From Actinomycetota bacterium (GTDB taxonomy: Bacteria; Actinomycetota; Actinomycetes; S36-B12; UBA5976): a stretch of 64,000 nucleotides of DNA. The notes below the pieces were generated by a model that saw only the letters and a program-made list of their open reading frames with translations, searched no databases and had not been told where the DNA came from. The DNA lies in NCBI GenBank assembly GCA_947452765.1, contig CANGDR010000001.1:194657-258656 (forward strand). Reading direction: 5' to 3'. A program made the translations under genes and the position numbers. Shown here one piece after another: positions 9,529-30,137 of the stretch. Each line of letters starts with the position of its first letter. Within the stretch, counting starts at the first letter, position 1.

Positions 9529-10512
9529 TTACTTGGTGCCTTGCAGCCAAGCAGCAACCTTGTCTGGGTTTGCAGCGATCCACTTGTCAGCAGCTGCCTT
9601 TGGATCCATCTTGTTAACTTCGATGTCCTTAGCAACGGCATTCTGATCGTCGTTGGTCCACTTGAAGTTCTTGGCAAGGATCGCAAAGTTTGATCCTGAG
9701 TCCACGAGCTTCTTTGAAGCCACCTTGTTCAGTGGGTACGGTGGGTAATCACAAGCAACCTTGGCTGGATCTGCATCGCAACCATCTGTGTATGCCGGGA
9801 AATTAACCTTAACTAAAGGAACTTCGTTTAGGAACCACTGTGGTTCGTAGAAGTATCCGATAACTGCCTTCTGGTTCGTTTCAGCAGCACGGAATGCTTC
9901 AATTAGCGCTGCCTCAGAACCGAGGAAGCGAACGTTGAAGTTTAGTTTAAGGTTCTTTACGAGAGCCTTTCCGTTAGTGACATAGCTTGGGTCACCTTCG
10001 ATCCAGTCGCCCTTACCTTTTGATTCAGCATTCTTGAAAAGATCTGCGTACTTGTTCAGATTCTTCCAGTCAGTGACATCTGGGTGTGCCTTTGCAAACC
10101 ATGGTGGTACGTAGTATCCAATGATGCCCTGGTTTCCTTGGCTGCCAAGATCAACTGCGACGTTTGCATCCGTGATGTACTTCTTGACTAAATCAGGGTG
10201 TCCCCAGTTTTCAACAACGAGGTCTACTTCGCCGCTCTGGAAGCCCTGCCAGGAAACTTGTTCGTCCAGGTCCTTTTGGTTGATTGTGCAGCCGAGCTTC
10301 TGTCGCGCAACTTCTGCGACAACGCTGGCACTTGCGGTGTAACCAACCCATGGGTTCATGGCAACTGACCATGTGCCACAGTCGGCTAACGCTGCTCCAG
10401 TTGGTGCTGCCGACGTTGCTGCGTTATTAACGCCGCCGCCACATGCACTCAGCATGAGAGCTACAACTGCGGACACGGCTATGCCGAGCCCACGCTTGCT
10501 TACTTTGCTCAT
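9529..10512 (-). CDS. proX: Glycine betaine/proline betaine ABC transporter substrate-binding lipoprotein
   Basis: The OpuAC/ProX-like sequence is rich in the aromatic residues expected of a betaine cage. The start is taken at ATG 10512 with a GGAGGG RBS. The signal peptide carries the lipobox LSAC (MSKVSKRGLGIAVSAVVALMLSACGG). Confidence 0.85.
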   Translation of the reverse strand: MSKVSKRGLGIAVSAVVALMLSACGGGVNNAATSAAPTGAALADCGTWSVAMNPWVGYTASASVVAEVARQKLGCTINQKDLDEQVSWQGFQSGEVDLVVENWGHPDLVKKYITDANVAVDLGSQGNQGIIGYYVPPWFAKAHPDVTDWKNLNKYADLFKNAESKGKGDWIEGDPSYVTNGKALVKNLKLNFNVRFLGSEAALIEAFRAAETNQKAVIGYFYEPQWFLNEVPLVKVNFPAYTDGCDADPAKVACDYPPYPLNKVASKKLVDSGSNFAILAKNFKWTNDDQNAVAKDIEVNKMDPKAAADKWIAANPDKVAAWLQGTK

Positions 10513-10581
10513 CCTTTTTCCCTCCGAGAGAGTGACCATCGACCTGATGATCAATCTGTCTCACTTGCGTGAGGCAGAAAC

Positions 10582-12522
10582 CTAAATGCGATCCGCGGGA
10601 CTTCCACGTTTCGCGCCGAACTGCGAGATTCGATCGAGCCCAATTCCCATGAACACGATCGCGAGCCCAGCAGCTAGACCCTTGCCAACGAGTGACAATT
10701 GCACGAAGCCATTGACCACGTCGTAACCAAGTCCACCACCACCAACTAGGCCACCTACGACGACCATAGCGAGCACATAGATCAATCCTTGATTAATTGC
10801 TAATGCTAGCGACTTACGACTGGCTGGAAGTTGTACTTTCGTGATCATTTGCCATGATGTGGATCCCGAAGCCGTTGCAGATTCGATCATGGTGACCGGA
10901 ACGGTGCGTATTCCCTCAGCGACCAGTTTCACAACAACCGGAAATGCATAGACGACAGCGGCAGCGATAGCGGTAAAACGCGTTGCCCCGAATAGGCCAA
11001 GTAGCGGAACCATGTACACGAATACCGGCAGGGTTTGCCCGGCATCCAGGATCGGGCGCATTATTCGATCAAAAGTTGCATTGCGACCTACCCCAACTCC
11101 CAATGCGATGCCAAGTAACAACGTCAGAACTGTTGCAGCCAGAACTTGAGTTAAAGTCAGCATGCTGTCTTGCCAAAGTCCAATAACTACGATGCCGCCA
11201 AACGACAGAGCTGCAATTAAAGCGGGACGAGATCCGCCGATAAGAAATCCAATTCCAACGATCATGGCGATGGTGAGGAACCACGGAGTTCCCGAAAGGA
11301 TCCACTCGAGTGGGTTAATGAAAGTGACTGTGATGGCATTTTGTAGGCCATCCGTTAAGAAGTAAAGATTTTCTTTCGCCCACTTTAGGGCACTGTTTGT
11401 AAAATTCTCCACATGCGGCCCGATATTTAGACTGCTGGGAAATACTGCCAGGGCCAGGATCGTACGTGACAGGTACATGAAAGTGAAAGCAATCGCCCCT
11501 GCGAGCACCACGCTTAGGCGACGACGCTTGATTTGTGATTCCGTCGGTGGCACGAAGTTGCGTGCGCGTGCGCCAGCGGCGCTAGCTGAACGGTCTAACA
11601 TGATCGCAAGAAATACGATCGCCAATCCGGCAACGAATCCCTTTCCCACATTCAATGTTTGAAGTGCTAGCAGAATTGTCTTCCCAAGTCCTGGTGCGTC
11701 AATTAGGGATGCGATTGTGACCAAAGACAGCGCGGCCATGACGCATTGGTTTACACCAACAATTATGGTTTCGCGTGCAAGTGGCAATTGCACCTTGCTA
11801 AGGATTTGGCGCTTTGTCGAACCCATTGATGTGGCTGACTCAATCACTGTGTGCGGTACGTGACGAATGCCGTGTGCTGTGATGCGAATGACTGGTGGAA
11901 TCGAATAAACCATTGTGGCGATGGTTGCTGATGCCGGGCCGATCAGAAAGATTAACGCTAGCGGCGTTAGGTATACAAACGTCGGCATGATCTGGGCGAA
12001 GTCAAGGATGGGTGTTAGCGCAGCTAGTGCTCGGTTAGAAATGCCGGCCCACACTCCAAGTGGCAATCCGATCGCAACCGACAAAATTACGGCTGCAATT
12101 GTTAAGGCAAGAGTGTCCGCTGTCTGTGTCCAAACACCTAGGAGACCGCAGCCAACTAAAAGCGAGACGCCAAGAATTGTGGTTTTTAGATTTGACGTGG
12201 CGTAGATTGCAAAACCAAAGAGAGCTACGACACCCGACCAGCCCAAGATGGGAATGAGGTTGTGACCTTCGGGCAGACTGATTACATCGCGGATTATCTT
12301 CACAAATGAATCGACAAAAGCGCGTAATGGATTAAAAAAGTACTTGAATAAGAAGCCTGAGTTTCGTTGGGAATCGATCTTTGCGGCCCAGTCGCCGAAC
12401 TTGGATTGGATGGGAGTCAGTGTGGAAGCGTCAAGGGGTTGCGTAGCCTTTCCATGCAAGACCACCCCGAGCACTGCCCAGAGTGCAACTATGATGGCTA
12501 CCTGGATCTTGCGGCTGCGCAT
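10582..12522 (-). CDS. proW: Betaine ABC transporter permease, tandem-fused double ProW-type domain
   Basis: The 646 aa polytopic membrane protein contains two internally similar permease halves, each with a binding-protein-dependent transport motif region. It has a TAATG junction with proV. Confidence 0.85.
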   Translation of the reverse strand: MRSRKIQVAIIVALWAVLGVVLHGKATQPLDASTLTPIQSKFGDWAAKIDSQRNSGFLFKYFFNPLRAFVDSFVKIIRDVISLPEGHNLIPILGWSGVVALFGFAIYATSNLKTTILGVSLLVGCGLLGVWTQTADTLALTIAAVILSVAIGLPLGVWAGISNRALAALTPILDFAQIMPTFVYLTPLALIFLIGPASATIATMVYSIPPVIRITAHGIRHVPHTVIESATSMGSTKRQILSKVQLPLARETIIVGVNQCVMAALSLVTIASLIDAPGLGKTILLALQTLNVGKGFVAGLAIVFLAIMLDRSASAAGARARNFVPPTESQIKRRRLSVVLAGAIAFTFMYLSRTILALAVFPSSLNIGPHVENFTNSALKWAKENLYFLTDGLQNAITVTFINPLEWILSGTPWFLTIAMIVGIGFLIGGSRPALIAALSFGGIVVIGLWQDSMLTLTQVLAATVLTLLLGIALGVGVGRNATFDRIMRPILDAGQTLPVFVYMVPLLGLFGATRFTAIAAAVVYAFPVVVKLVAEGIRTVPVTMIESATASGSTSWQMITKVQLPASRKSLALAINQGLIYVLAMVVVGGLVGGGGLGYDVVNGFVQLSLVGKGLAAGLAIVFMGIGLDRISQFGAKRGSPADRI

Positions 12523-13550
12523 TAGTTAATGCCTCCACCGATCACGCGCAATACATCTTGTGCATTCACAACACCGACTGGATTATTCCCGTCAAGAACT
12601 GTGACCGAACCATCTGCAGCCAAAATGTGCTTTGTTGAGTCGCGGATAACTGTGCTCGAAGGCAAAGTTGTGGTGGATACTTTTTCATCTGCTCTTGCAG
12701 GTCTAGCAATGGTACGCAACGTCAGAACGTGTGACTTTGGCACATCGCGGGTAAATTCAGCCACATAATCGTCGGCAGGATTTGCTATCAAGTCTTCGGC
12801 TGTACCCATTTGAACGACGGCACCATCTCGCATAATTGCAATCCGATCACCCAGTTTTATGGCTTCATCTAAGTCGTGCGTAATAAAAATCATGGTCTTA
12901 CCAAGTTCTTGGTGCAAGCGAATAACCTCAGTTTGCATGTCGCGACGAATCAGGGGATCTAACGCGGAAAATGGTTCGTCTAGAAACATAACTTCTGGAT
13001 CAACTGCGAGGGCACGCGCTAGTCCGACTCGCTGCTGCATGCCGCCAGAAAGTTGTTCCGGAAATGCTTGCTCGAATCCCTCTAGGCCAACTAGTTCTAT
13101 TACTTCACGGGCGCGGGCATGGCGTTTATCTTTGGCAACTCCGTTGACTTCTAATGAGAATGCAATATTGTCGATGACCTTGCGATGCGGTAGTAATCCA
13201 AAATTTTGAAAGACCATTGAGAACTGGGTACGCCGTAATTCGCGCAGGCGTGATTCAGAAGCTTTTAGTACGTCCTCACCGTTCATCACAACGCTGCCAG
13301 CGGTAGGTTCAATCAATCTGGTTAAACAGCGCACCAAAGTTGATTTTCCAGATCCGGAAAGACCCATAACCACAAAAACTTCACCAGGTGCGACGTCGAA
13401 GGAAACTTCCCGAACTGCGGCCGTATTACCCGTCTTCTCCCGCAATTCAGCACGCGGAAGTGCAGCATCAGGGCTGTCGACGATTTTTTCAGGATTCGGT
13501 CCGAAGACTTGCCAGAGGTTACGAACTGAGATTGCGCTGGTGTTAGACAT
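12522..13550 (-). CDS. proV: Betaine ABC transporter ATP-binding protein with C-terminal CBS pair
   Basis: Walker [10 protein letters not shown], signature [14 protein letters not shown] and Walker [12 protein letters not shown] are present, followed by a CBS-like tail. The real start is probably ATG 13550 ([15 protein letters not shown] 8 nt upstream). The ORF-track N-terminus (to 13781) overlaps betB and is rejected. Confidence 0.88.
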
Positions 13551-15048
13551 TTTCATGACCCTCCGTTGCTTTAAACCAATCTGATCTTGCGGGTTTTTGG
13601 TTCTGCCAGATGTGTTTGTGTTCCAGGTATTCTGCAAATCCAGCTTCGCCAAGTTCGCGCCCAATCCCAGATTGCTTAAAACCACCCCATTCTGCTTGTG
13701 CCACGTAGGGGTGGTAGTCGTTAATCCAAATTGTGCCGTGCCGTAATTGTCGCGCAACGCGCTGTGCTTTGTCTGCGTCATTTGTCCATACGGCTCCGGC
13801 TAAGCCAAAAATAGTGTCATTTCCAAGTTTGATGGCTTCTTCTTCGGTGTCGAATACCTCAACTGTCACAACTGGCCCGAAAGATTCGTCCTGAACGCAA
13901 CTCATCTCAGACGTACATTCATCTAACACTGTTGGTCGGTAGAAAAAGCCATTCGCATATTTTTCACCTTCTGGCCGTTTTCCACCGGCCCGCAACACTG
14001 CACCTTCAGAAATTGCATCAGCAACATAGCGCTCAACTTTGTCGCGATGAGCAGCGCTTATTAATGCTCCAGTTTCAGCATCCAGATCATGCGAACCGCC
14101 CAGTCGAATCTGGTCAGCTCGGCGCGCAATTTCAGTTACTACTTGGTTATGAATCTTGCGCTCAACAAGTAAGCGCGCACCAGCTGAGCAAACCTGGCCA
14201 GAATGTAGGAATACTGCAGTTAGCGCATTATCTATGGCTGCATCTAAGTCAGCATCAGCAAAAATAATATTTGGATTCTTACCACCAAGTTCGAGTGCGA
14301 CCCTCTTGATGGTTTCAGCCGCATTAACCATCAATCGTTTTCCAGTTGCCAAACTTCCGGTAAATGAAACCATGTCCACGCCTGGGTGGGTGCTAAGTGG
14401 ACCGCCGGCGACGGCGCCAGAGCCAAGAACCAAGTTTGCAACACCAGCTGGTACGCCTGCTTCGCTCAGTACGTCCATCAACATCGAGGTAGTGGATGGC
14501 GTCAGTTCGCTTGGCTTGATTACAAATGTGCAGCCTGCCGCTAGCGCTGGCGCAATCTTCCAGGAAGCCTGAAGTAGGGGATAGTTCCAAGGCGTGATCA
14601 TTGCTATTACGCCAACTGGTTCGCTAACCATAGTGCTTCGAATATTTTCTCGACCAGTAGTTACTTCGCGCTCATGGGAAAGTGTTGCCCGTGTCGCAAA
14701 ATAGCGGAACACCGAAATAATATCGTCCATGTCGTAGTTAGCTTCAATAATTCTTTTGGCGGTATCGGCAGATTCAGCTTCTGCGAAGCGAGCCTTATCT
14801 CGTTCAAGAATGTCTGCAACTTGCTCCAAGATTTTGCCGCGTTGTTCGCCGGAGAATGATCGCCAATGACCCGAGTCGAATGCCGACCGTGCAGCGTCAA
14901 TTGCAGCGACCGTGTCAGATGCACTACCTTCATGGAAAATTGCAACTAAGTGTCCGTCGGCTGGGTGAAGTACATTTCGGATCTCGCCCGAGGAACTGCC
15001 AACACGTTCGCCGCCAATAAACAGTTCAGTTATCTTTTCGTATGCCAT
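13543..15048 (-). CDS. betB: Betaine-aldehyde dehydrogenase (NAD-dependent aldehyde dehydrogenase family)
   Basis: The 501 aa protein has the ALDH motifs ELGGKNP and catalytic Cys in GQVCSAG. Its context with betA and the betaine transporter supports the BetB call. Confidence 0.85.
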
Positions 15049-15059
15049 GACAGAAAACC

Positions 15060-15839
15060 CTACTCGCGTCCGAAGTCTGGTTTGCCAGAAAGTTTGGTTG
15101 CACTTAGTTTCACAATATGGCCCAATGTCTCAAAATCTGCAGACTTAATTCGACTGGCCGGACCCGAAATGCAGAGCGCGGCGATTACCTCGTCATGTTC
15201 GTCACGAATTGGGGCAGCGATCGCCACAAAGTCATTTTCCATCTCTTCATTAGCAACGGCGTAGCCAAGTTCTCGAACTTTAGCTAACTCTGCCTCGTAT
15301 GCCGAGACCGAAGTAATTGTGTTAGGCGTCAACTTTGCCCAAGTGTGCGGGCGAGCAGCTACGCGGGATTCTGGATCTAACCACGCAGATAAAACTTTTC
15401 CGGTTGCCGTGCAGTGGGGTGGCACGCTCTTTCCCAGCCAACTTCGCATCGTGACCATTGACGGACCAATGACTTGATCTACGTATAGGACTTCATTGCC
15501 TTCTAAGACTGCGATGTTTACGGTTTCGCCAACTTCTTGCGCTAGCGCCCTGGTGACTGTACGGGAACCTGACACCGCAGAATGGGAACTCGTTACCGTT
15601 CCAGCAAGACGCACCAATCCCATTCCAAGTCGATAACGTCCACGATCAGAAAGTTGTTCCACTAAGCCACGTGCTTGCAGTGCTGACATGAGTCGGGAAG
15701 CTGTGGACTTGTGAATTTCTAACTCACTGGCAATTTCGGTAACGCCGTATTCGCCTTGCTCAGCCAGGATCTCGAGGATCCGCAGGGCACGATCAACAGA
15801 TTGAACCGAACTACCTTCGATCAAATGACTGTTGCCCAT
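15060..15839 (-). CDS. IclR-family transcriptional regulator
   Basis: The 259 aa protein has an N-terminal wHTH (SVQSVDRALRILEILAEQGEYGVTEIASELEIHKSTASRLMSAL) and a C-terminal IclR effector domain. Confidence 0.85.
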   Translation of the reverse strand: MGNSHLIEGSSVQSVDRALRILEILAEQGEYGVTEIASELEIHKSTASRLMSALQARGLVEQLSDRGRYRLGMGLVRLAGTVTSSHSAVSGSRTVTRALAQEVGETVNIAVLEGNEVLYVDQVIGPSMVTMRSWLGKSVPPHCTATGKVLSAWLDPESRVAARPHTWAKLTPNTITSVSAYEAELAKVRELGYAVANEEMENDFVAIAAPIRDEHDEVIAALCISGPASRIKSADFETLGHIVKLSATKLSGKPDFGRE

Positions 15840-15868
15840 GACGCAACATTATGCGTCATGGGCAACAG
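15829..15868. promoter_or_regulatory. 17-bp perfect inverted repeat (CTGTTGCCCATGACGCA-N6-TGCGTCATGGGCAACAG) spanning the iclR start codon
   Basis: The arms at 15829-15845 and 15852-15868 were read directly and are exact reverse complements. The iclR ATG (15839-15837) lies inside one arm. On the minus strand the loop reads TAATGT, a TANNNT -10-like hexamer ending 6 nt before the ATG. The repeat lies 25 nt downstream of the fhs stop. Confidence 0.55.
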
Positions 15869-15893
15869 TTTCTAGCCCTTTTTAATTTTTTAT

Positions 15894-17561
15894 TTAAAAG
15901 AGACCTACAACTTCGCCATTTTCCAATTTGATGCTGTTAGCGGCTGGAACCTTAGGCAAGCCAGGCATAGTCATAATGTCACCAGTAACGACCACGATGA
16001 ATTCAGCTCCAGCACTCAGTCGAATTTCCCGAATCGCAACAGTGTGACCGGAAGGTGCACCCTTGGCTGCTGGATCTGTTGAGAACGAGTACTGGGTCTT
16101 TGCGATACAGATTGGGAAGTGACCGTAGCCAGCATCTTCAAATACCTGGAACTGATCTTTGACACTCTTGTCAGCTACAACTTCAGCAGCGTCATAGATT
16201 TCGCTGGTGATGGTCGCGACCTTATCCCAAAGTGACATGGTGTCTGGATAGAGCGGCTTGAATGCAGCGGTGCCACCTTCAACAATTTCAACGACTTTAT
16301 TAGCAAGCTCAATTGTGCCCTTGCTACCTTCAGCCCAGTGCGTGCAGCGAATTGCGGCTACGCCCATCTCGGCACAGAACTTCTGGACTGCAGCAAATTC
16401 CGCATCAGTATCAGTTGTGAAGTTGTTAACGCCAACAACTACTGGAACTCCGAATTTCTGTACATTGCGAATGTGGCGACCAAGGTTGGAAAGGCCTGCT
16501 TCAACAGCAGCCACATTCTCTTTACCTAAATCATCTTTGGCAACGCCACCATGCATTTTTAACGCGCGAACTGTCGCCACAATCACTGCAGCATCAGGTG
16601 CTAACCCAGCTTTGCGGCATTTGATGTCAAAGAATTTCTCGGCACCTAAATCAGCACCAAATCCAGCTTCAGTAACTACGTAGTCACCGAGTCTTAGTGC
16701 CGTGTCAGTTGCAAGCACCGTGTTGCAACCATGTGCAATATTTGCGAACGGTCCACCGTGCACAAATGCAGGGTTATTCTCAAGTGTCTGAACCAAGTTA
16801 GGCATCAAGGCATCTTTTAGAAGTACGGTCATTGCACCGTTGGCATTTAGTTGAGCTGCTGTGATCGGCTTCTTATCGCGGGTGTATCCCACAACAATAT
16901 TTCCAAGGCGACGCTCTAGGTCATCTAGGTCCATGGCCAAACAAAAAATTGCCATAACTTCGCTAGCAACCGTGATATCGAAACCAGCTTCGCGTGGATA
17001 GCCATTACCTGGCCCACCTAACGCAGCTGTGATCTCGCGAAGTGCGCGATCATTCATATCTATTACGCGCTTCCAAGCAATTCGTCGTACGTCAATCTCT
17101 AGTTCGTTACCCCAATAGATGTGGTTATCCAACATTGCGGAAAGCAAGTTATGAGCCGCACCAATTGCATGGAAGTCACCGGTGAAGTGCAGGTTAATGT
17201 CTTCCATCGGAACTACTTGGGCAAAGCCGCCACCAGCAGCGCCACCCTTCATACCAAAGCAAGGTCCAAGTGATGGTTCGCGCAGACAGATGATGGCATT
17301 TTTGCCAATGGCGTTAAGTCCATCGCCAAGTCCAACAGTTGTCGTGGTTTTACCTTCACCAGCGGGAGTCGGAGTCATCGCAGTAACTAGGACTAACTTT
17401 CCGCGTGGCTTATTTTTCAGCGACGAGATGAAGTCCATATTGATTTTGGCTTTGGTCGGACCGTAGTTCAGAACCGCGTCCGCTGGTATACCGATTTTTC
17501 CTGCAACCGAAACGATTGATTCAGTAGTGGCTGCCCGAGCAATATCGATATCTGATTTCAT
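15894..17561 (-). CDS. fhs: Formate--tetrahydrofolate ligase
   Basis: The 555 aa protein has the P-loop [15 protein letters not shown] and is FTHFS-like throughout. It has an ATGA overlap with the upstream methyltransferase gene. Confidence 0.95.
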
Positions 17562-18997
17562 GCCAGTAACTCCTTCTTACGCTTGGCGACCCATTCGTCA
17601 AGCTCTTCCTTAATTGCTGCATCCATTGCAGGAGCTTCGTATTCACCAAGCATTTTATGCGCCATTTCATTGGCGCGAATGTCGGTGGTCTTGGAACCGT
17701 TGCGTGACCAGCGGTCGAAGTTGTCGGCAGATGACAGGAATGGCCGGTAGAAACAATCCCGGAATCGTTCCATAGTGTGCATTGTGCCTAAGAAGTGACC
17801 ACCGTGACCGGCTTCTTCATGCGAACCAAATGCAAGTGAGGCTTCGTCAATTTCGATCGGAGTGAATTCAGCTTGCATCATCTGCAGTAACTCAACATCC
17901 ATAACGAATTTTTCGTAACAGGCAACTAGGCCACCTTCGAGCCAGCCAGCGGTATGCATTACAAAGTTAGTGCCAGCCAGGAAGGTCGCATGCATTGTCA
18001 TCAAGGTTTGGTAACCAGCTTGGGCATCCATAGTTTGCGCTGCATTTAGACCGCCGCCACCACGGAACGGAAGTCCAAAGTGCCGTGCAATTTGTCCAGT
18101 GCAGAGTAGGCCCATTGCGGATTCTGGCGTGCCAAACATTGGCGAGCCAGACTGCATGTCAATGTTTGAAAGGAAGGATCCGAATACAACAGGGCAACCT
18201 GGACGAACTAGCTGAGCTAATGCGATGCCGCTTAATGCTTCCGCAATTTGCTGCACAAGTGATGCTGGAATTGTTACTGGGCTCATTGCGCCCATCAACA
18301 AGAACGGCGTTAGTACGCACGGTTGACCGGCTTCGCTGTATTCAAATAGTGACTCGAGCATGCGATCATCCCAACGCAAAGGGGAGTTGCAGTTAATCAA
18401 GGAAATGATTGCAGGAGTTTTTTCTATGTTTGCGCGGCCGCCGAATACGATCTCGGTCATCTTGATCGTGTCTCGGGCATTTAGTCCTGTAACAACGTTG
18501 CCCATATAGACCTTGTCGCTCAGGGTTTGGCAGGAATAGATCATGTCAATGTGACGGGTATCCAAGTCAGCATCATTTGGTTCTACAACTACCGAGCTTG
18601 CCACATCTAGATCAGTAAACATGTGGGTAAGTTTTGTGAGATTTCTGAAGTCTTCCAAAGTTCCATCGCGACGTACCCCAAGGTCACGAACGAACGGAGG
18701 GCCGTAAACGCCACCGAAAACCATATTGTCGCCACCAATGATGACGTTGTTCTCTGGGTTGCGAGCTTGTAGCGTGAATTCGCTTGGCGCCTGAGCAACT
18801 TGTTCCAAAATCCAGTCTGGATCGAACTTCACGTTGTTGCCTTCAACTTTTTGACCAGCTGCACGGAATAAATCCAGCGCGCGCTCGTGCATGAATTCGA
18901 CTCCCATTTCGGAAACGATGCGGCGCCATCCCTTATCAAGGACTGCCATGGCGTCCTTTGAAAGGATTTCGTACCGCGGGCTCTTGTTCTGGAACAT
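17558..18997 (-). CDS. MttB-superfamily (non-pyrrolysine) quaternary-amine:corrinoid methyltransferase, MtgB-like
   Basis: The 479 aa protein has trimethylamine-methyltransferase-family sequence over its full length ([43 protein letters not shown]). The reading frame is uninterrupted, with no in-frame TAG. Confidence 0.85.
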
Positions 18998-19208
18998 GTC
19001 CGGCTCCTGGCTCGTGGGTCACCTAATTAGGTAACGGCTCTAGTTACTCTGCCAAAGACTTGGGCAAATTAGTTGCCAAATCACTTGACGAATGGCTATG
19101 ACAATACCGTACTATGTGGAACATAGGTTCCAGATTATGAAAAATTATTTGGGGCTTCGAAGGTAAAAGAAAGTGCAGTTATTTCACTGTCTATATAAAG
19201 GAGGCGAG

Positions 19209-19964
19209 ATGGAAGAAAAGCCAGTTACTGGAACCCAATCCATTGATCGCGCCTGCGACCTATTAATTCGCGTTTTAAACAGTGACGATCCCCAGACCTT
19301 GAGCGAACTAGTTTCAGTAACTGGCTTGGCGAAGGGAACTACGGCAAGAATTCTTAGCGCTTTAGAGCGATCTGGCTTATTGGGCCGTAGCCCGATCGGC
19401 GGGTTTGAAGCTGGACCAGTTCTTAATCAGTTCGCAGTTCGAGGTGGCGCTTACACCGCACTAATTGGATCTTTGACTCCAGCTATGGAACGAATTGCCG
19501 ACATTACCCACGAAACAGTGAGTTTGGCGGTAACTGGGCACAACGGCATCGACAACATTGCGCAAGTCGAAGGCTCATATTTATTAGGAAGTCGCAACTG
19601 GGTTGGCGAAAGTGTCCCGGCTCACTGTTCAGCAGCTGGAAAAGTTTTGATTGCATTTGGAGCCGCGTCTGCGCCCGCCACGTTAGTGCCACGCACAGTC
19701 GAGACGATCACAGATTTTGCGGTACTAGATGCCCAGATCCGACGGGCGCACGAAGTTGGATTCGCAGTAATTCGAAATGAACTTGAACAAGGTTTGGTTT
19801 CGATCTCAATTCCAGTATTAGGGGATAATGGGAAAGCGATTGCTGCTTTGTCAGTTAGTGGCCCGGCTGAAAGAATTACCCCTGGCGATGAAATTCACAT
19901 CGCACAATTAATGCGTCGCGAGCTAAGCCAATTTCACGGCACACAACAAGAAGGAGCGGCATGA
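19209..19964 (+). CDS. IclR-family transcriptional regulator (second copy)
   Basis: The protein has wHTH and IclR effector domains. The start is taken at ATG 19209 behind an AGGAGG RBS; the ORF-track start is 19173. Confidence 0.85.
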   Translation: MEEKPVTGTQSIDRACDLLIRVLNSDDPQTLSELVSVTGLAKGTTARILSALERSGLLGRSPIGGFEAGPVLNQFAVRGGAYTALIGSLTPAMERIADITHETVSLAVTGHNGIDNIAQVEGSYLLGSRNWVGESVPAHCSAAGKVLIAFGAASAPATLVPRTVETITDFAVLDAQIRRAHEVGFAVIRNELEQGLVSISIPVLGDNGKAIAALSVSGPAERITPGDEIHIAQLMRRELSQFHGTQQEGAA

Positions 19965-20617
19965 CACCCGACGAAATTCTGACGGAACTGTACGAACGAA
20001 CCATGGAAGGTAATGCTCCTCGGGTACTTGAGCTAACCAAAATGGGACTCGAACTCGACATGACTCCGGATTCGATCTTGTTCGAGGCCCTGATTCCTTC
20101 CTTAGAAGAAGTTGGTGCCCGGTTCGAGCGGGGTGACTACTTCGTTCCTGAAATGCTTATTGCCGGTCGCGCGATGAGTGGCGCATTGGATGTCCTGCGC
20201 CCGCTCCTTGCTGATACTGGCGCCGAAACAGTTGGAACGTTCCTAATGGGAACTGTCAAGGGCGATGTGCATGACATTGGCAAGAACTTGGTGAACATCA
20301 TGCTCGAAGGTGCCGGCTTCCAAGTTATCGACCTTGGCGTACAAACTCCGCCTGAAAAATTCATTGATGCAATTAAGGAACACCAACCAGATGTTGTTGG
20401 TATGTCTGCATTCCTAACTACAACTATGCCGATGTTCAAGGTGAACATTCACGAAATCACCAAGGCTGGTATGCGCGACGACGTAATTATCATGGTCGGC
20501 GGTGCTCCGGTTACCCAGGAATACGCAGACGTAGTTGGCGCAGATGGTTATGCCGCCGATGCCTCCACTGCCGTTCGTAAAGCTAAGGAACTAATCGCAA
20601 TTAAGCGTGCTAAGTAA
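19961..20617 (+). CDS. Cobalamin-binding corrinoid protein (B12-binding_2 cap plus Rossmann B12 domain), MtgC/MtbC-like
   Basis: The 218 aa protein carries the DxHxxG base-off/His-on motif as GDVHDIGKN, followed by MSAFLTTTM and GGAPV. It has an ATGA overlap with iclR. Confidence 0.88.
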   Translation: MTPDEILTELYERTMEGNAPRVLELTKMGLELDMTPDSILFEALIPSLEEVGARFERGDYFVPEMLIAGRAMSGALDVLRPLLADTGAETVGTFLMGTVKGDVHDIGKNLVNIMLEGAGFQVIDLGVQTPPEKFIDAIKEHQPDVVGMSAFLTTTMPMFKVNIHEITKAGMRDDVIIMVGGAPVTQEYADVVGADGYAADASTAVRKAKELIAIKRAK

Positions 20618-20625
20618 CAAACTTC

Positions 20626-21009
20626 ATGACCACTTTCATTGCAACCGTAGAACACTTAGTCAAGGGACCTGTTTGGGGCTGCCAAGACTGTGGGCAATGC
20701 GTACTTCATTCGACCGGGATGACTTGTCCGATGAATTGCCCAAAGACTTTGCGTAATGGTCCTTGTGGCGGCGTGCGTGAAAACGGTAACTGTGAAGTAA
20801 AACCAGAAATGCAATGTGTTTGGTTGAAGGCGTATGACCGTACCGAGAACTGGCCACTGCCCAAGACTTGGAAAGCTGAATACAACCACCTAAGACCACC
20901 GGTTGATAATCGGCTCAAGGGAACTTCATCGTGGAAAAACTTTTTTACAAAGCGGGATCGCTGGACTCCAGCGGGCTGGGCTAAGTCCACCGACGAGGCT
21001 GGGCACTGA
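20626..21009 (+). CDS. Methylene-THF reductase C-terminal-domain protein (MetV-like, Cys-rich)
   Basis: The 127 aa protein has the Cys cluster CQDCGQCVLHSTGMTCPMNCPKTLRNGPCGG, characteristic of the small MetV partner of MetF in acetogens. Confidence 0.75.
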   Translation: MTTFIATVEHLVKGPVWGCQDCGQCVLHSTGMTCPMNCPKTLRNGPCGGVRENGNCEVKPEMQCVWLKAYDRTENWPLPKTWKAEYNHLRPPVDNRLKGTSSWKNFFTKRDRWTPAGWAKSTDEAGH

Positions 21010-21950: not shown

Positions 21951-22802
21951 ATGCATACAGTAGTAAGTTCTGCCACCAAGACCGTTACGATCGGCCACGA
22001 TCAGCCGTTTGTGATTATTGGCGAGCGCCTTAACCCAACTGGTCGCAAACTCTTCCAAGAAAAGCTTCGGGCAGACGATCTTTCAACCATCGAAAAAGAT
22101 GTAGCAGACCAGGTCGCTGGCGGGTGCGACATGTTGGACGTAAACATGGGCGTGCCATTAACTGATGAACCAGCATTGCTTGCCAAAGCAGTCCAGCTAG
22201 TTCAATCTCTAACTGACTTACCAATCTGTATTGACTCTTCGGTTATCGAAGCCCTTGATGCAGGTCTGGCAGTCTATGAAGGTAAAGCTCTGGTTAACTC
22301 GATGACTGGCGAAGATGAGCGCATGGATTTAATCCTGCCGCTTGTTAAAAAGTACGACGCTGCAATTCTTGCGCTGCCAAATGATGAAATTGAAATTCCA
22401 ATGCTCGCCAAAGATCGAATGGTGATCGTTGAAAAGATTGTGCGTCGCGTTGAAAAAGAAGGCATTCCACTGGAAAACCTTTTAATCGATCCGTTAGCTA
22501 TGCCTGTTGGCGCCGATCCGGAAAACGTCAAGAATACTTTGGAAACTATTTACCAGATCAAAGAGAAGTACGGCTTAAACATGTCGCTGGGTGCTTCGAA
22601 CGTTTCGTTCGGTTTACCTAACCGTCACATCCTTAATGCAGCATTTATGCCGATGGCTATGGCGATGGGACTAACTTCGGCAATCATGGATGGCCGTACC
22701 CCAGAAGTCGTGCAAGCCGTTCGTGCCGCTGATCTCTTGCTTGGCCTAGACCAGTGGGGCGCTAACTGGATTACCCAGTTCCGCGCATCAAAAGAAGCAT
22801 AA
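21951..22802 (+). CDS. Methyltetrahydrofolate:corrinoid methyltransferase (pterin-binding domain, MtgA/AcsE-like)
   Basis: The 283 aa protein has a pterin-binding barrel (IIGERLNPTGRK, MLDVNMG, GASNVSFGLPNR). Confidence 0.8.
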   Translation: MHTVVSSATKTVTIGHDQPFVIIGERLNPTGRKLFQEKLRADDLSTIEKDVADQVAGGCDMLDVNMGVPLTDEPALLAKAVQLVQSLTDLPICIDSSVIEALDAGLAVYEGKALVNSMTGEDERMDLILPLVKKYDAAILALPNDEIEIPMLAKDRMVIVEKIVRRVEKEGIPLENLLIDPLAMPVGADPENVKNTLETIYQIKEKYGLNMSLGASNVSFGLPNRHILNAAFMPMAMAMGLTSAIMDGRTPEVVQAVRAADLLLGLDQWGANWITQFRASKEA

Positions 22803-24702: not shown

Positions 24703-25289
24703 GCCTGGCTGTGATTGCATGTGGCGCGCTTTCGGCCCACGTTCACGAGATTGCGGATCGCAATCATCTGGAGCTACATGTTGAACCAATCAATCCGCTC
24801 TTGCACAATCGTCCCGAAGGAATCGCACCAGCCGTAGAAGAACTAATCCTGGAACTCCAGCCAAATTATGATCACATTGCTATTGCATATGCAGATTGCG
24901 GCACCTACGGGGCACTCGATGTAGTTTGCGAGAAGTATCAAGTTTCCCGACTGGCGGGCGATCATTGCTACGACGTATTTGCAACTGCCGAAAAAATGAA
25001 AGCCGAATTCGAAAAGGTTCCGGGCACCTACGTGCTAACGGATTACTTAGTTAAAAGTTTTCGCCGGAGCGTAATGAACGAAATGGGCCTAGATCGTTAT
25101 CCAGAATTACGCGATGACTATTTCCATGCCTATAAGAGAATTCTCTGGCTAGCCCAGCATCAAACCCCTGAACTTGAGGAAGCGGCCAAGGATGCAGCGT
25201 CCTTAATTGATTTACCGCTAGAAATCATTAATGTGGGAGATAAGCACTTAGAGGAACAGTTAATGGTTTTGATCGGGAGCACGAAATGA
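24699..25289 (+). CDS. DUF1638-domain protein (unknown function, recurrently linked to corrinoid methyltransferase systems)
   Basis: The 196 aa protein is recognised by family recollection of its sequence (IACGALSAHV, YADCGTYGALD). It has ATGA overlaps on both sides, with the activase and with fdsG. Confidence 0.65.
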   Translation: MSLAVIACGALSAHVHEIADRNHLELHVEPINPLLHNRPEGIAPAVEELILELQPNYDHIAIAYADCGTYGALDVVCEKYQVSRLAGDHCYDVFATAEKMKAEFEKVPGTYVLTDYLVKSFRRSVMNEMGLDRYPELRDDYFHAYKRILWLAQHQTPELEEAAKDAASLIDLPLEIINVGDKHLEEQLMVLIGSTK

Positions 25290-25747
25290 GCAATTACTCC
25301 GAAGAATCCATACTTAACTATTTAGGACCTTACAAAGGTGATACCTCAACTATCTTGAGATCGCTGCAATTAATCCAAGAACTATTAGGTTATGTGCCGG
25401 ACAGCGCACTTGATTTAGTTGCCAAAAACAGCGGTGTCTCGCGCGCTGAGGTCTATGGCGTATTTACTTTCTATAGTGATTTTCGCTCGACACCGCCGGC
25501 AAAAGCCGTTGTTAAGGTGTGCGTAGCCGAAGCCTGCCAAGCATCCGGAAATGCCGAATTGATATCGGGTCTCCATGACCACGGGTATGACATCCATAAC
25601 GGCAGTGTTAAAGATGACATTCAAATGGAGCAAACTTTCTGCTTAGGCAACTGCGCCCTAGGACCGTCGGTCATGGTAAATGGGGCTCCAATGGGCCGGG
25701 CAACCTGCGACAAAGTTTTAGCTGCAGCAAAGGCAGCATCGGTATGA
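25286..25747 (+). CDS. fdsG: Formate dehydrogenase gamma subunit (NuoE-like 2Fe-2S)
   Basis: The 153 aa protein has a thioredoxin-like 2Fe-2S fold with C..C....C..C spacing (VCVAEACQ, FCLGNCALGP). Confidence 0.8.
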   Translation: MSNYSEESILNYLGPYKGDTSTILRSLQLIQELLGYVPDSALDLVAKNSGVSRAEVYGVFTFYSDFRSTPPAKAVVKVCVAEACQASGNAELISGLHDHGYDIHNGSVKDDIQMEQTFCLGNCALGPSVMVNGAPMGRATCDKVLAAAKAASV

Positions 25748-27288
25748 CAAAAGTATTCATCCCTCGGGATTCCGCAGCGCTATCTGTCGGAGCCGATGAA
25801 GTTGCTGCGAAAATTATTAAAATCGCAGCCAAGCAAGGGCTAGATGTGACGGTTGTTAGAACTGGCTCGCGCGGCATGTTATTTCTAGAGCCACTTATGG
25901 AGGTTGAAACTGCTGCTGGTCGGATTGGGTACGCGAATGTAACTCCAGAAATGGTCGAAGATCTACTTGCTGCAGGTGCATTAAGTGGCGCATCCCATGC
26001 GTCAACCATCGGCCAAGTTGAAAGTCACGAATACTTCGCCCGCCAAAACCGAATCACTTTCGCCCGGGTTGGAATCATAGATCCAATTTCGATAACTGAT
26101 TATGAAGCACATGGCGGGTTAGCTGGCTTAAGAAATGCTCTTGCGAAAACACCGGAATCTATTGTCGAAGAAGTTACCGAATCTGGACTTCGCGGTCGCG
26201 GCGGAGCAGGTTTTCCAGCTGGAATAAAATGGAAGACCGTTTTACTGGCAACCTCAGATCAAAAATACATTTGCTGCAATGCGGATGAAGGCGACAGCGG
26301 AACATTTGCAGATCGCATGCTGATGGAGGGTGATCCATTCACCTTGATAGAAGGCATGATTATTGCTGGCATAGCCGTTGGTGCGACAAAAGGTTTGATT
26401 TATGTCCGATCCGAATACCCACATGCGATTTCAATTTTTAACGAAGCAATTGCGGTTGCTAATTCTTCTGGATTATTAGGTTCATCTGTCCTTGGTTCGG
26501 CTCATGAATTCAATCTAGAAGTTCGAGTTGGCGCCGGATCATATGTTTGTGGCGAAGAAACTGCGATGTTGGAAAGTTTGGAAGGTAAGCGTGGCATGGT
26601 TCGCGCCAAGCCACCGATTCCTGCGTTAGTTGGCTTGTTCGGTAAGCCAACTGTCATTAACAATGTGATGACGCTGGCTGCTGTGCCAATGATTTTGGCG
26701 CAAGGGGCTGCTGCCTATCAATCGCTAGGGCATGAGCGATCGCGAGGAACTCAAGTTTTCCAACTTGCCGGCAACATAAAGCAAGGCGGAATTGTGGAGC
26801 TTGCATTCGGAACCACGCTCGGCGAACTAGTTGATGGCTTTGGCGGCGGCACATTGTCCGGCCGCCCAGTAAAGACAGTTCAAATCGGCGGCCCGCTTGG
26901 GGCATACCTAGGTAAGTCAGACTGGAATGTCCCAATGGCTTATGAGTCCTTGGCTGAGGTCGGTGGCATGCTTGGTCACGGCGGCATTGTGGTCTTTGAT
27001 GACACAGTAAATATGGCCAAACAAGCCCGTTTTGCTATGGAATTCTGTGCCGAGGAATCCTGCGGCAAGTGCACGCCATGTCGAATTGGATCAACTCGCG
27101 GGGTCGAAGTCATTGACCGAATCGTTGCCGGCGAGGAACAATCAAAGAACCTAGAACTGCTTTCAGATCTTTGCGATGTGATGGCTGATGGTTCGCTGTG
27201 TGCCATGGGTGGATTAACTCCACTACCAGTACGAAGCGCCTTGAAGCTGTTTCCTGCAGACTTCGGAATCTCGGTAGGAGTTAAGTAA
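25744..27288 (+). CDS. fdsB: Formate dehydrogenase beta subunit (NuoF-like NAD/FMN/4Fe-4S)
   Basis: The 514 aa protein has GLRGRGGAGFPAG (FMN site), CNADEGDSGTF and ESCGKCTPCR (4Fe-4S). Confidence 0.88.
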   Translation: MTKVFIPRDSAALSVGADEVAAKIIKIAAKQGLDVTVVRTGSRGMLFLEPLMEVETAAGRIGYANVTPEMVEDLLAAGALSGASHASTIGQVESHEYFARQNRITFARVGIIDPISITDYEAHGGLAGLRNALAKTPESIVEEVTESGLRGRGGAGFPAGIKWKTVLLATSDQKYICCNADEGDSGTFADRMLMEGDPFTLIEGMIIAGIAVGATKGLIYVRSEYPHAISIFNEAIAVANSSGLLGSSVLGSAHEFNLEVRVGAGSYVCGEETAMLESLEGKRGMVRAKPPIPALVGLFGKPTVINNVMTLAAVPMILAQGAAAYQSLGHERSRGTQVFQLAGNIKQGGIVELAFGTTLGELVDGFGGGTLSGRPVKTVQIGGPLGAYLGKSDWNVPMAYESLAEVGGMLGHGGIVVFDDTVNMAKQARFAMEFCAEESCGKCTPCRIGSTRGVEVIDRIVAGEEQSKNLELLSDLCDVMADGSLCAMGGLTPLPVRSALKLFPADFGISVGVK

Positions 27289-30137
27289 TGACATTGCTTG
27301 CAGATCCACGCGGCACGATGCCGATTCGTTCCGGCATTGGCGAACCTGATTATGGAACTCCTAAGTCCAGCTCCCAAGTAATGGTTACGGTCACCATCGA
27401 CGGTGAGGCACATGTAGTCCCTGAAGGTACTTCAGTAATGCGAGCCGCTGGCGAAGCAGGCTGTTCAATACCAAAACTTTGTGCGACCGATTCGCTCCAG
27501 CCATTTGGCTCATGTCGCATGTGCATCGTCGAAATCGATGGACGAAAGGGAACTCCAGCTTCTTGCACAACTCCGGTGGAGGAGGGAATGGTAGTTCGCA
27601 CCCAGACCGAGAAAGTTGCCAAACTTCGCAAAGGTGTGATGGAACTTTATATTTCCGACCATCCATTGGACTGCTTAACGTGTTCAGCTAATGGCGATTG
27701 CGAACTGCAAGACATGGCGGGTGTGGCTGGGCTGCGTGAGGTCCGTTATGGCATGGACGGCAAGAATCACCTCGATGCACCGACCGATTCATCTAATCCA
27801 TATTTTTCATTCGATGAGAGCAAATGCATTGTCTGTAATCGCTGCGTTCGCGCGTGTGATGAAGTACAAGGAACTCTCGCGCTAACCATTGAAGGCCGTG
27901 GCTTTAATTCGAAAGTAAGTCCAGGTGGGTTGAATTTCCTTTCAAGTGAATGTGTTTCGTGTGGCGCCTGTGTTCAGGCTTGTCCGACCGCAACTTTGCA
28001 AGAAAAGAGTGTCATTGATTTAGGTATGCCAACTCGCACCGTGCAAACCACTTGTGCATATTGCGGTGTTGGTTGCTCATTTAATGCCGAACTTCGTGGC
28101 GATGAACTTGTCCGTATGGTGCCTGCTAAAACTGGTGGCGCCAACGAAGGTCATAGTTGTGTGAAAGGCCGCTTTGCTTGGGGTTATGCCTCGCACTCAG
28201 AACGAATCACCAAGCCAATGATGCGCGAAAAAATTACTGATGAATGGCGTGAAGTTTCGTGGGATGAAGCAATTGAGTTTACTGCTTCCAAGCTAAAGGA
28301 AATCCAACTGCAATACGGTGACAACAGCATTGGTGGAATTTCGTCATCAAGATGCACCAATGAGGAAATCTTTGTTGTCCAAAAAATGGTTAGAGCCGCC
28401 TTTGGAAATAACAATATTGATACGTGTGCTCGCGTTTGCCACTCGCCAACTGGATATGGTTTGAGCACTACATACGGCACTTCGGCTGGCACGCAAGATT
28501 TTAAGTCGGTGGCAAAGTCAGATGTGATAGTTGTGATTGGCGCAAATCCAACAGATGCCCACCCAGTGTTTGCTTCTCGCATGAAGCGCCGGATTCGTGA
28601 AGGCGCACAACTGATCATTATTGATCCGCGCAAGATTGATCTGGTGGAATCCGCACACATTAAGGCTGACTACCACCTGCAATTGCAGCCAGGCACAAAT
28701 GTTGCTGTGATAAACGCAATCGCACATGTAATTGCAACCGAGGGTTTGATTGACGAAGTGTTCGTTTCAGAGCGCTGCGATCCAGGGCCATTTAATCGCT
28801 GGCGAAAATTTATCGAACTTCCAGAAAACAGCCCAGAAGTTGTTGAGTCCCAGTCTGGCGTTCCAGCCGAAACTATTCGCCAGGCAGCTCGGCTGTATGC
28901 AGCTGGAAATAACGCTGCTATCTACTACGGCCTTGGTGTAACTGAGCACTCGCAAGGTTCAACCATGGTTATGGGTATGGCAAACCTTGCAATGGCTACT
29001 GGAAATATCGGCCGCGAAGGTGTGGGTATCAACCCATTGCGTGGCCAAAATAATGTGCAGGGTGCCTGTGACATGGGATCGTTCCCGCATGAACTTTCTG
29101 GTTACCGACATGTTTCTGATAACGCCGTGCGTGAGCAATTTGAAGCGCTTTGGGATGTAAAGCTGCTACCGGATCCTGGCATGAGAATTCCAAATATGTT
29201 CGACAATGCGATCTCCGGAGAATTCCGTGGATTGTTTGTGCATGGCGAAGACATCGCGCAATCCGATCCAAACACCAAGCACGTTGAAAAGTCCCTTAAG
29301 TCGATGGACTTAGTTGTCGTACAGGACCTATTCCTAAACGAAACCTCTAAGTTTGCACACGTATTCCTGCCTGGCACTTCCTTCCTGGAAAAGGATGGAA
29401 CGTTCACCAATGCGGAACGTCGTATCAATCGCGTGCGACCAGTTATGGCGGCTAAGAACGGCAAGCAAGAGTGGCAAATCATCTGTGAAATTGCACAAGC
29501 AATGGGTTATGACATGCATTACGAAAATTCTGCTCAAATCATGGATGAGATTGCGCAAATTACACCGACATTCAAAGGTATTAGTTTTGCAATGCTCGAT
29601 GAAGTTGGCAGCGTGCAGTGGCCATGTAATGACGCCGCTCCTGACGGTACGCCAATCATGCACGTAGATGGTTTTGTTCGGGGACAAGGACAGTTCATGG
29701 AGACACCGTTTGTCCCAACCGAAGAACGGTCAAATCGTAAGTTCCCGCTATTGCTGACAACTGGACGTATCTTGACTCAATACAACGTTGGCGCCCAGAC
29801 TCGCAGAACAGCAAATGTAACCTGGCATCCCGAAGATGTTTTGGAGATTCACGAGTCAGATGCAGCGTTACGTGGCATTTCAGATGGTCAGAAGATCGCG
29901 GTATCAAGTCGAATTGGCGAAACAATTTTAACTGCAGAAGTAAGTGATCGAGTGCCTGCTGGAGTGGTCCACACCACGTTCCACCATCCAACTAGTGGTG
30001 CAAATGTAATCACGACGGAGTTTTCAGACTGGGCAACTAACTGTCCGGAATTCAAAGTGACTGCAGTGGAAATCCGCCCAGCTGACTCGAGCGCAGCGCC
30101 AACAAATACCCTCGAATCAGTATTGACCAAGGCTTAA
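27288..30137 (+). CDS. fdsA: Formate dehydrogenase alpha subunit (molybdopterin, Cys active site)
   Basis: The 949 aa protein has N-terminal 2Fe-2S/4Fe-4S motifs (CRMCIVE, CIVCNRCVRAC, CVSCGACVQACP, CAYCGVGC). The Mo-bisPGD domain has TCARVCHSPTG where Sec enzymes carry U, so this is a Cys-type enzyme. Confidence 0.92.
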   Translation: MTLLADPRGTMPIRSGIGEPDYGTPKSSSQVMVTVTIDGEAHVVPEGTSVMRAAGEAGCSIPKLCATDSLQPFGSCRMCIVEIDGRKGTPASCTTPVEEGMVVRTQTEKVAKLRKGVMELYISDHPLDCLTCSANGDCELQDMAGVAGLREVRYGMDGKNHLDAPTDSSNPYFSFDESKCIVCNRCVRACDEVQGTLALTIEGRGFNSKVSPGGLNFLSSECVSCGACVQACPTATLQEKSVIDLGMPTRTVQTTCAYCGVGCSFNAELRGDELVRMVPAKTGGANEGHSCVKGRFAWGYASHSERITKPMMREKITDEWREVSWDEAIEFTASKLKEIQLQYGDNSIGGISSSRCTNEEIFVVQKMVRAAFGNNNIDTCARVCHSPTGYGLSTTYGTSAGTQDFKSVAKSDVIVVIGANPTDAHPVFASRMKRRIREGAQLIIIDPRKIDLVESAHIKADYHLQLQPGTNVAVINAIAHVIATEGLIDEVFVSERCDPGPFNRWRKFIELPENSPEVVESQSGVPAETIRQAARLYAAGNNAAIYYGLGVTEHSQGSTMVMGMANLAMATGNIGREGVGINPLRGQNNVQGACDMGSFPHELSGYRHVSDNAVREQFEALWDVKLLPDPGMRIPNMFDNAISGEFRGLFVHGEDIAQSDPNTKHVEKSLKSMDLVVVQDLFLNETSKFAHVFLPGTSFLEKDGTFTNAERRINRVRPVMAAKNGKQEWQIICEIAQAMGYDMHYENSAQIMDEIAQITPTFKGISFAMLDEVGSVQWPCNDAAPDGTPIMHVDGFVRGQGQFMETPFVPTEERSNRKFPLLLTTGRILTQYNVGAQTRRTANVTWHPEDVLEIHESDAALRGISDGQKIAVSSRIGETILTAEVSDRVPAGVVHTTFHHPTSGANVITTEFSDWATNCPEFKVTAVEIRPADSSAAPTNTLESVLTKA

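Follow-up and report, generated by a model that had tools for sequence, protein, structure and literature searches.

The 64,000-nucleotide stretch analyzed here (contig CANGDR010000001.1 of an Actinomycetota bacterium, positions 194,657 to 258,656; hereafter the window) carries on its minus strand an open reading frame (ORF) of the MttB methyltransferase family, which we call mttB. We assign its product, with a probability of about 0.75, as the MtgB-type substrate subunit of a cobalamin-dependent glycine betaine:tetrahydrofolate (THF) methyltransferase system of the aerobic MtgBCD kind. Glycine betaine itself is the probable substrate, to judge mainly from the surrounding genes. These form two divergent arrays that encode all steps leading from choline or betaine to glycine and CO2, apart from the one that turns glycine betaine into dimethylglycine. 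The cluster contains genes for BetA, BetB, ProVWX, dimethylglycine dehydrogenase, SoxBDAG, MtgC, MtgA, MetVF, FolD, Fhs and formate dehydrogenase, and no other glycine betaine demethylase was found in it. Since all other steps are encoded, the MttB-family protein is the sole candidate for the missing one.

The ORF encodes 479 amino acids, starts with ATG and ends with TGA. Reading through it gave zero internal stop codons, which bears out an earlier statement that it has no in-frame TAG. The protein matches the Pfam profile PF06253 (MTTB) over its full length (626.3 bits; gathering cut-off 25), and residues 3–477 correspond to profile positions 25–499/500. The model of the pyrrolysine (Pyl)-containing trimethylamine (TMA) enzyme, TIGR02369, scored 278.9 bits, below its cut-off of 525. 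The product is thus a non-Pyl MttB-family methyltransferase, as had been proposed from the sequence. A chance ORF can be rejected because 7999 of 8000 scored candidates in the homologue search matched at E ≤ 0.001, and the matches listed are 71–95% identical. Identity is 44.7% to the Sinorhizobium meliloti protein of PDB entry 4yyc and 41.1% to Desulfitobacterium hafniense MtgB (9yce). The BLASTP alignment with the latter is full-length and almost without gaps (E = 1e-137; phmmer 405 bits). From 41–45% full-length identity to three solved structures, the protein is predicted to fold as a TIM barrel extended at the C terminus, like 2QNE and 7XCL. No second MttB paralogue occurs in the 64-kb window.

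The original prediction had argued for glycine betaine from the company of betA, betB, proVWX, dimethylglycine-oxidizing and Sox genes. That context is strong, in that glycine betaine to dimethylglycine is the only missing step; support from the protein sequence is partial. The mttB gene heads at least 14 co-directional minus-strand genes with intergenic gaps of at most 156 bp, in the order mttB-fhs-iclR-betB-proVWX-DMGDH-soxBDAG-folD-betA, where DMGDH is the dimethylglycine dehydrogenase-like gene. The 10-gene rightward operon runs iclR-mtgC-metVF-mtgA-activase-DUF1638-fdsGBA. The later steps of glycine betaine breakdown and THF-linked one-carbon oxidation (DMGDH, SoxBDAG, FolD, Fhs and FdsGBA) are thereby joined to mttB in one divergon, and this linkage recurs in related loci. 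The gene named betA in the earlier description is indeed a GMC-oxidoreductase gene, but the window holds only a fragment that runs off its left edge. Elsewhere betA lies between betB and proV, or directly after mttB (L029 and L059 in the genome scan described next).

We scanned one genome per species and kept the best 80 loci; all are from Actinomycetota, with proteins 69–92% identical. Full 10-kb flanks were available for 53 of them, and neighbors were counted in these. Divergent adjacency to mttB was found for mtgC, mtgA and the activase gene (RACo) in 53/53, for an IclR gene in 52/53 and for DUF1638 in 50/53. Linkage to betB (32/53) and proV (31/53) stands at about 60%. S. meliloti and Paracoccus aminovorans have the same divergent layout in their annotations, without the IclR gene. 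In two phyla, then, the usual arrangement is for mttB to be transcribed away from its corrinoid partners. The metV-metF pair lies inside the corrinoid operon in the window, in S. meliloti and in Paracoccus, but in only 11 of the 80 actinobacterial loci; most Nocardioides-type loci lack it there. Cultured relatives among the loci include Nocardioides and Phycicoccus (L008, L016, L031, L034 and L050); L016 is from Nocardioides iriomotensis, L031 from N. currus and L050 from Phycicoccus jejuensis.

The route proposed here was derived from family functions. ProVWX would import betaine or choline, and BetA and BetB would turn choline into glycine betaine. MtgB would bind glycine betaine and pass one N-methyl group to Co(I) of MtgC. 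MtgA would then move the methyl group to THF, while the RACo/RamA-type activase and the DUF1638 protein re-reduce oxidized cobalamin; both classes are named B12-reactivation proteins (PMC12478193). Methyl-THF would be oxidized to methylene-THF by MetVF and carried to 10-formyl-THF by FolD. Fhs, running in reverse, would free formate, one ATP and THF, and FdsGBA would oxidize the formate to CO2 with formation of NADH. The leftover dimethylglycine would be demethylated by the DMGDH-like enzyme and SoxBDAG, with two methyl groups also going onto THF. Both halves run divergently from a 211-bp region whose palindrome is probably bound by an IclR regulator. The mttB-fhs linkage would allow the entry step, which consumes THF, to be expressed together with the exit step, which releases it. 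Such co-expression would make sense of the recurrent linkage, because methyl transfer uses free THF and only PurU or Fhs return it. What we infer is the substrate, the direction of Fhs, the function of the operator and this THF-balance rationale, whereas the family memberships, the residue conservation, the gene order with its conservation and the palindrome were observed.

D. hafniense MtgB is the biochemically proven glycine betaine:corrinoid methyltransferase, and in 2026 mutagenesis together with a ligand-bound structure established its substrate site (PMC13080624). Y97 and F356 bind the quaternary nitrogen through cation–π contacts, R312 and H348 bind the carboxylate, and the F356L exchange raises Km several-hundred-fold (PMC13080624). 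R312, and often H348, are also conserved in enzymes for other substrates, but MtcB, MtpB, MthB and MtyB are reported not to conserve the aromatic pair (PMC13080624). We aligned 119 actinobacterial homologues with 120 Firmicutes homologues of D. hafniense MtgB. Positions 98, 312 and 348 are Y, R and H without exception in the 119 Actinomycetota, 4yyc and the 120 Firmicutes, so the carboxylate-binding pair is present and invariant in the clade of the window protein. Position 352 is Trp in every actinobacterial sequence and 4yyc, and Ile in all Firmicutes (n = 120). Position 356 is Gly in every actinobacterial sequence and 4yyc, and Y, F or W in 120/120 Firmicutes. For the active-site residues, which the original prediction had proposed to model, the alignment gave a divided answer: Y98, R312 and H348 of the glycine betaine site are kept, and the F356 half of the aromatic pair is a Gly. 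The strict swap suggests a shift of the second aromatic residue by four positions in the chain, with W352 in place of F356.

A neighbor-joining tree (108 sequences, 100 bootstraps) was built from 50%-identity cluster representatives and reference proteins. It contains two super-groups that follow the 352/356 swap, and the clade of the window protein has 94–100% support. In the sampled family, the first group (I352 with an aromatic 356) includes D. hafniense MtgB. The second (W352 with G356) holds the window protein, 4yyc and many clades with varied residues at position 98. Because the sampled family splits in this way, the published four-residue glycine betaine motif describes the first group only. 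In the nearest representatives outside the clade (P0241 and P0242, 55–56% identity), position 98 is Q or S, and the neighbor genes are unrelated. The closest relatives outside the clade at this identity (L081 1820–3265 and L083 8001–9467), which also have Q or S in place of Y98, lie near an MFS transporter, hydrolases or alcohol dehydrogenases, and neither has glycine betaine or corrinoid-operon neighbors. Relatives of this kind are probably paralogues that act on a different substrate. Two further representatives at 49–50% identity keep Y98; an aldehyde dehydrogenase gene follows one (P0245) and a MetV gene the other (P0246).

Several observations weigh against the assignment to glycine betaine. 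The fourth contact of the known site, F356, is Gly in the window protein, and its replacement by W352 is read from the sequence swap rather than from coordinates. The window protein falls in the W352/G356 super-group, outside the D. hafniense MtgB clade, and the deep nodes are weak (bootstrap 5–62%). The phylogeny is also incomplete, as it left out Eubacterium limosum MtpB, MtcB, MtyB and MthB and the roseobacter MtgB1. The phylogenetic check suggested at the outset thus gave a well-supported clade for the window protein, but not one within that of D. hafniense MtgB. The actinobacterial clade is placed by sequence and context, and identity to the sole biochemically proven MtgB is 41%. Percent identity cannot assign a substrate, because MtcB and MtyB, though 53% identical, act on different substrates. 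The match of the betB-like gene lies under the NCBIfam cut-off (TIGR01804, 584 vs 669 bits). Importers of the ProVWX type are not specific for glycine betaine and also carry proline betaine and choline.

These same points feed the strongest alternative, in which the enzyme acts on another quaternary amine (proline betaine, choline or phosphocholine, carnitine or γ-butyrobetaine), shares MtgC, MtgA and the activase, and lies beside glycine betaine genes that belong to a separate route. Family membership does not give the substrate, R312 and often H348 are kept in enzymes for other substrates too, and the aromatic residue at 356 is absent. Even so, we consider this reading unlikely. It would leave the cluster without an enzyme from glycine betaine to dimethylglycine, although each later step is encoded. 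No enzymes for the products of other substrates, such as N-methylproline or norcarnitine, were seen in the scans of the window. The betB/proV linkage persists in about 60% of related loci, and the protein retains Y98 of the aromatic pair, which MtcB, MtpB, MthB and MtyB are reported not to conserve. The orthologous cluster of S. meliloti is, moreover, the one assigned to glycine betaine. Glycine betaine thus stays the preferred substrate.

The overlap of mttB with fhs was read directly on the minus strand, where the junction runs CTG GCA TGA AAT; the mttB stop codon and the fhs start codon share ATGA, just as first described. The original prediction went further and saw an unusual operon logic in the coupling of the methyltransferase to fhs instead of to its corrinoid protein. 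This did not hold up: divergence from the corrinoid operon is standard (53/53 loci, S. meliloti and Paracoccus), a gene for cleavage of formyl-THF is common 3′ of mttB, and ATGA occurs at five junctions. Targeted tblastn with PurU, Fhs and BetA was used to count neighbors in 72 loci. An fhs gene on the same strand directly 3′ of mttB is present only in the four closest loci (L001–L004). Three of them (L001, L002 and L004) have the GCATGA overlap, and in L003 the TAA of mttB is followed directly by a GTG start. In many soil Actinomycetota, purU (formyl-THF deformylase) comes right after mttB, as in L006 (6721–7599; TIGR00655, 347 bits vs cut-off 286). In 14 loci, purU is no more than 150 bp from the 3′ end of mttB (same strand in 9, convergent in 5), and seven loci of Nocardioides type have a convergent purU-fhs pair. 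Counting either gene, the figures are 22/72 loci at up to 150 bp and 37/72 at up to 3 kb; in many loci, neither adjoins mttB. Typically, then, the place behind mttB belongs to an enzyme that cleaves 10-formyl-THF to formate and free THF, and the window lineage has the ATP-conserving version. No purU was found in the 64-kb window by tblastn. In the window lineage, the ATP-conserving Fhs would have replaced the hydrolytic PurU in this slot.

A stronger reading of the junction takes the ATGA overlap as dedicated coupling of MttB to Fhs, with fixed stoichiometry or a folate-channelling complex, and as a logic specific to this pair. An overlap or tight junction does recur in four species-level relatives, to three of which the window cluster has 74–79% nucleotide identity, and a formyl-THF-cleaving gene is the commonest 3′ neighbor of mttB in the clade. 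We regard this reading as improbable, and more so than a different amine substrate. Within the cluster, five junctions have a four-base ATGA overlap and three others a one-base overlap, so overlap is the house style of a compact genome; the ATGA overlap was accordingly rejected as a special feature. Other lineages have purU in this position, and not rarely it runs in the opposite direction (5 of 14 adjacent cases); seven loci have a convergent fhs. This excludes translational coupling as the conserved feature. Many loci have neither gene adjacent, and in Ruegeria pomeroyi fhs and mtgB are unlinked yet co-induced.

That the protein is a TMA methyltransferase, with true MttB function but without Pyl, is very improbable: the Pfam family name and the source annotations ("trimethylamine--corrinoid protein Co-methyltransferase") point that way, but the protein scores 279 bits on the Pyl TMA model, whose cut-off is 525, and 134 bits against Methanosarcina barkeri MttB versus 405–440 bits against non-Pyl structures (phmmer), has Leu (L317) where M. 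barkeri MttB has Pyl, and has no TMA-related genes around it in the window, and D. hafniense MtgB does not use TMA.

The two arrays diverge from a 211-bp region that ends at the ATG of iclR2 (19209), which is preceded by a AAAGGAGG ribosome-binding site. The gap and the divergence agree with the shared control region proposed earlier. It does not face the corrinoid gene directly, as the IclR gene comes first and the corrinoid protein gene second. The region contains a perfect palindrome, TGGAAC-ATAG-GTTCCA, which falls in the best-conserved block of the alignment with L001–L004. Of the 80 regions upstream of mttB that were examined, 50 have the pattern TGGAAC-N4-GTTCCA with at most two mismatches (28 exact), against a background rate of 0.025 per 370 bp. 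As an IclR gene adjoins it, the palindrome is a strong candidate operator that would serve both divergent operons and is probably bound by the adjacent IclR regulator. Further GTTCCA/TGGAAC half-sites lie over the mttB start codon (18990–18995) and at the iclR2 5′ end (19229–19234). A scan of 15000–19400 for σ70 promoters and terminators gave sites not above shuffled sequence, and the consensus may not suit Actinomycetota. The literature searches made for an IclR regulator of glycine betaine catabolism gave none.

The features are collected in Table 1. Two IclR-family paralogues occur in this one catabolic island, iclR1 inside the leftward array and iclR2 at the head of the rightward operon. 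No gene of the PF02574 type (mtgE, homocysteine-binding) was found among the ORFs of the window that were scanned, a search that did not cover the genome outside it. The Rfam scan of the window found no cobalamin riboswitch and no other non-tRNA family. Farther right are an amino-acid permease with a pyridoxal phosphate-dependent decarboxylase (34270–37290) and a copper amine oxidase with an amino-acid permease (46163–49743). These pairs may continue the region's theme of amine catabolism.

Table 1. Features of the glycine betaine gene cluster and its surroundings, in window coordinates
Feature	Position	Strand	Evidence
betA-like GMC oxidoreductase fragment, cut by the left window edge; last leftward gene, after folD	1–1212	−	65% identical to the GMC ORF of L029
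folD	1215–2072	−	Pfam domains
soxB, soxD, soxA, soxG	2087–6880	−	Pfam domains; soxD from reading frame
Dimethylglycine dehydrogenase-like gene	6904–9372	−	Pfam domains
betB-like gene with proV, proW, proX (betaine/choline ABC importer)	9529..15048	−	TIGR01186 proV 359 bits vs cut-off 327; OpuAC, BPD_transp_1 domains
betB-like aldehyde dehydrogenase	13543–15048	−	Best match TIGR01804 (betaine aldehyde dehydrogenase), 584 bits, below cut-off 669
iclR1, second IclR-family regulator, between fhs and betB	15060..15839	−	PF01614 + PF09339
fhs, formate-tetrahydrofolate ligase	15894..17561	−	NF010030 908.9 bits vs cut-off 652; PF01268 880 bits
mtgB-like, Pyl-free MttB-superfamily quaternary-amine:corrinoid methyltransferase	17558..18997	−	PF06253; probable glycine betaine:Co(I)-MtgC methyltransferase
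Divergent control region mtgB/iclR2, 211 bp	18998..19208	.	Sequence read; conserved core in alignment with L001–L004
Perfect palindrome, candidate IclR-type operator	19117..19132	.	Sole exact copy in the 64-kb window
iclR2, IclR-family regulator, first rightward gene	19209..19964	+	PF09339 + PF01614
mtgC-like corrinoid (B12-binding) protein, second rightward gene	19961..20617	+	PF02310 + PF02607; best NCBIfam corrin_MtgC_2, 205.8 bits, below cut-off 370
metV	20626–21009	+	PF12225
metF, methylene-THF reductase	21009–21920	+	PF02219
mtgA/mtgD-like methylcorrinoid:THF methyltransferase (pterin-binding)	21951..22802	+	PF00809; NF005719 306 bits vs cut-off 259
RACo/RamA-type reductive activase with 2Fe-2S domain	22834–24702	+	PF14574, PF17651, PF17650, PF00111
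DUF1638 protein	24699–25289	+	PF07796
fdsG, fdsB, fdsA, NAD-linked molybdenum formate dehydrogenase	25286..30137	+	PF01257; PF01512 + PF10589; PF00384 + PF01568 + PF04879
moeA, mobA, fdhD, just past fdsGBA	30352–33211		Domain scan
Four tRNA genes	33347–33419, 37317–37389, 49999–50069, 50139–50211		Rfam RF00005

The kind of system is already described, and current understanding is not overturned. New here are the actinobacterial clade, a predicted glycine betaine site that departs from the published motif, a conserved candidate IclR-type operator and the PurU/Fhs slot. We tentatively suggest, as a possibility somewhat short of even odds, that the Actinomycetota clade is a distinct oxygen-tolerant branch of glycine betaine methyltransferases. 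It would bind the trimethylammonium group with W352 instead of F356, be controlled by IclR on a phylum-wide TGGAAC-N4-GTTCCA operator and, in a freshwater Nanopelagicales-like lineage, have exchanged PurU for Fhs in a slot translationally coupled to mttB. The W352 arrangement is common to 4yyc and many other W352/G356 members, and the four-residue motif derived from D. hafniense does not transfer unchanged to the window clade or to 4yyc. The Y98-R312-H348-W352-G356 pattern, the divergent iclR-mtgC operon and the candidate palindromic operator can serve as markers of the clade. If the assignment holds, cobalamin-dependent aerobic demethylation of glycine betaine, which was established only in 2025 and there for marine Proteobacteria, reaches past that group. 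Actinomycetota of soil and freshwater would share it as a broad and conserved system, and it would add to the vitamin B12 demand known for those habitats. Each betaine methyl group would yield substrate-level ATP plus NADH, and the replacement of PurU by Fhs would be a small, tidy, energy-conserving variant in a compact genome.

Among the known relatives, M. barkeri MttB (7XCL) belongs to the same TIM-barrel superfamily and aligns over residues 13–474. It has Pyl at the L317 position and T, Y and Y at positions 98, 312 and 348, and the match reaches 134 bits. The E. limosum enzymes MtpB (proline betaine), MtcB (carnitine), MtyB (γ-butyrobetaine) and MthB (phosphocholine/choline), compared by description only, share the superfamily, the three-component logic and R312. 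They are reported not to conserve the aromatic pair, whereas the window protein keeps Y98 and has a glycine betaine catabolic context. D. hafniense MtgB (DSY3156; 2QNE, 9YCE) has Y97, R312 and H348 in common with the window protein, and both lack Pyl. As in the window, its partner is a small corrinoid protein, together with a THF methyltransferase and an ATP-dependent activase. The two differ in F356/I352 versus G356/W352 and lie in separate super-groups; the window host is aerobic, and the methyl group would be oxidized rather than feed anaerobic metabolism. Among the matches listed, the NCBI name "glycine betaine--corrinoid protein methyltransferase" is given only at or above about 57% identity to the D. 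hafniense enzyme and consistently above about 65%; the window protein stands at 41%.

The closest known counterpart is the aerobic system. Mausz et al. (2025) found that aerobic R. pomeroyi demethylates glycine betaine through MtgB, MtgC and MtgD, with MetF2, RamA, DUF1638 and THF-linked one-carbon oxidation co-induced (PMC12478193). Mutants of R. pomeroyi in mtgC or mtgD cannot use glycine betaine, and the genes are clustered in many taxa including S. meliloti, where the cluster is described as MtgBCDE (PMC12478193). The genome table of that study (Dataset S2) has no "Actino" entries, and 5% of the marine mtgC reads are from Actinomycetota (PMC12478193). On glycine betaine, R. pomeroyi co-induces Fhs, MtgB1, MtgB2 and DUF1638. 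A double mutant of Phaeobacter inhibens in mtgB1 and gbcAB does not grow on it. A preprint on choline in Paracoccus does not mention MttB proteins. The S. meliloti cluster (L084, CP090106.1, mttB 11875–13449) comprises a cobalamin-binding protein, DUF1638, metVF, a methyl-THF methyltransferase and an ASKHA activase, and bmt lies about 6 kb from its mttB; the accession is labelled pSymB yet is 3.7 Mb long. Its MttB-family protein is 100% identical to 4yyc, which was deposited as a "putative trimethylamine methyltransferase". A solved structure of a candidate MtgB of the aerobic type therefore already exists.

The window cluster has the parts list of the aerobic MtgBCD(E) systems of R. pomeroyi, P. 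inhibens and S. meliloti, including the Fhs link (PMC12478193; bioRxiv 10.64898/2025.12.19.695462). In the aerobic systems, MtgC and MtgD also take part in methionine synthesis with the homocysteine-binding MtgE, as a split methionine synthase. MtgC, MtgD, MetF2, the RamA-type activase and DUF1638 are all encoded at 19961–25289 beside the ORF. S. meliloti and Paracoccus share the divergent layout of mttB and the corrinoid operon, and their cluster proteins are 31–56% identical to those of the window. The alphaproteobacterial MtgB is about 45% identical to the actinobacterial clade, and 4yyc has the same Y-R-H-W352-G356 pattern as the window protein. The window differs from the aerobic systems in its actinobacterial host, and no mtgE was found among its scanned ORFs. 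Unlike the two alphaproteobacterial loci, it has an IclR gene and the palindrome between mttB and mtgC, and, unlike the aerobic MtgBCD(E) clusters, it unites Fhs and formate dehydrogenase in the same divergon.

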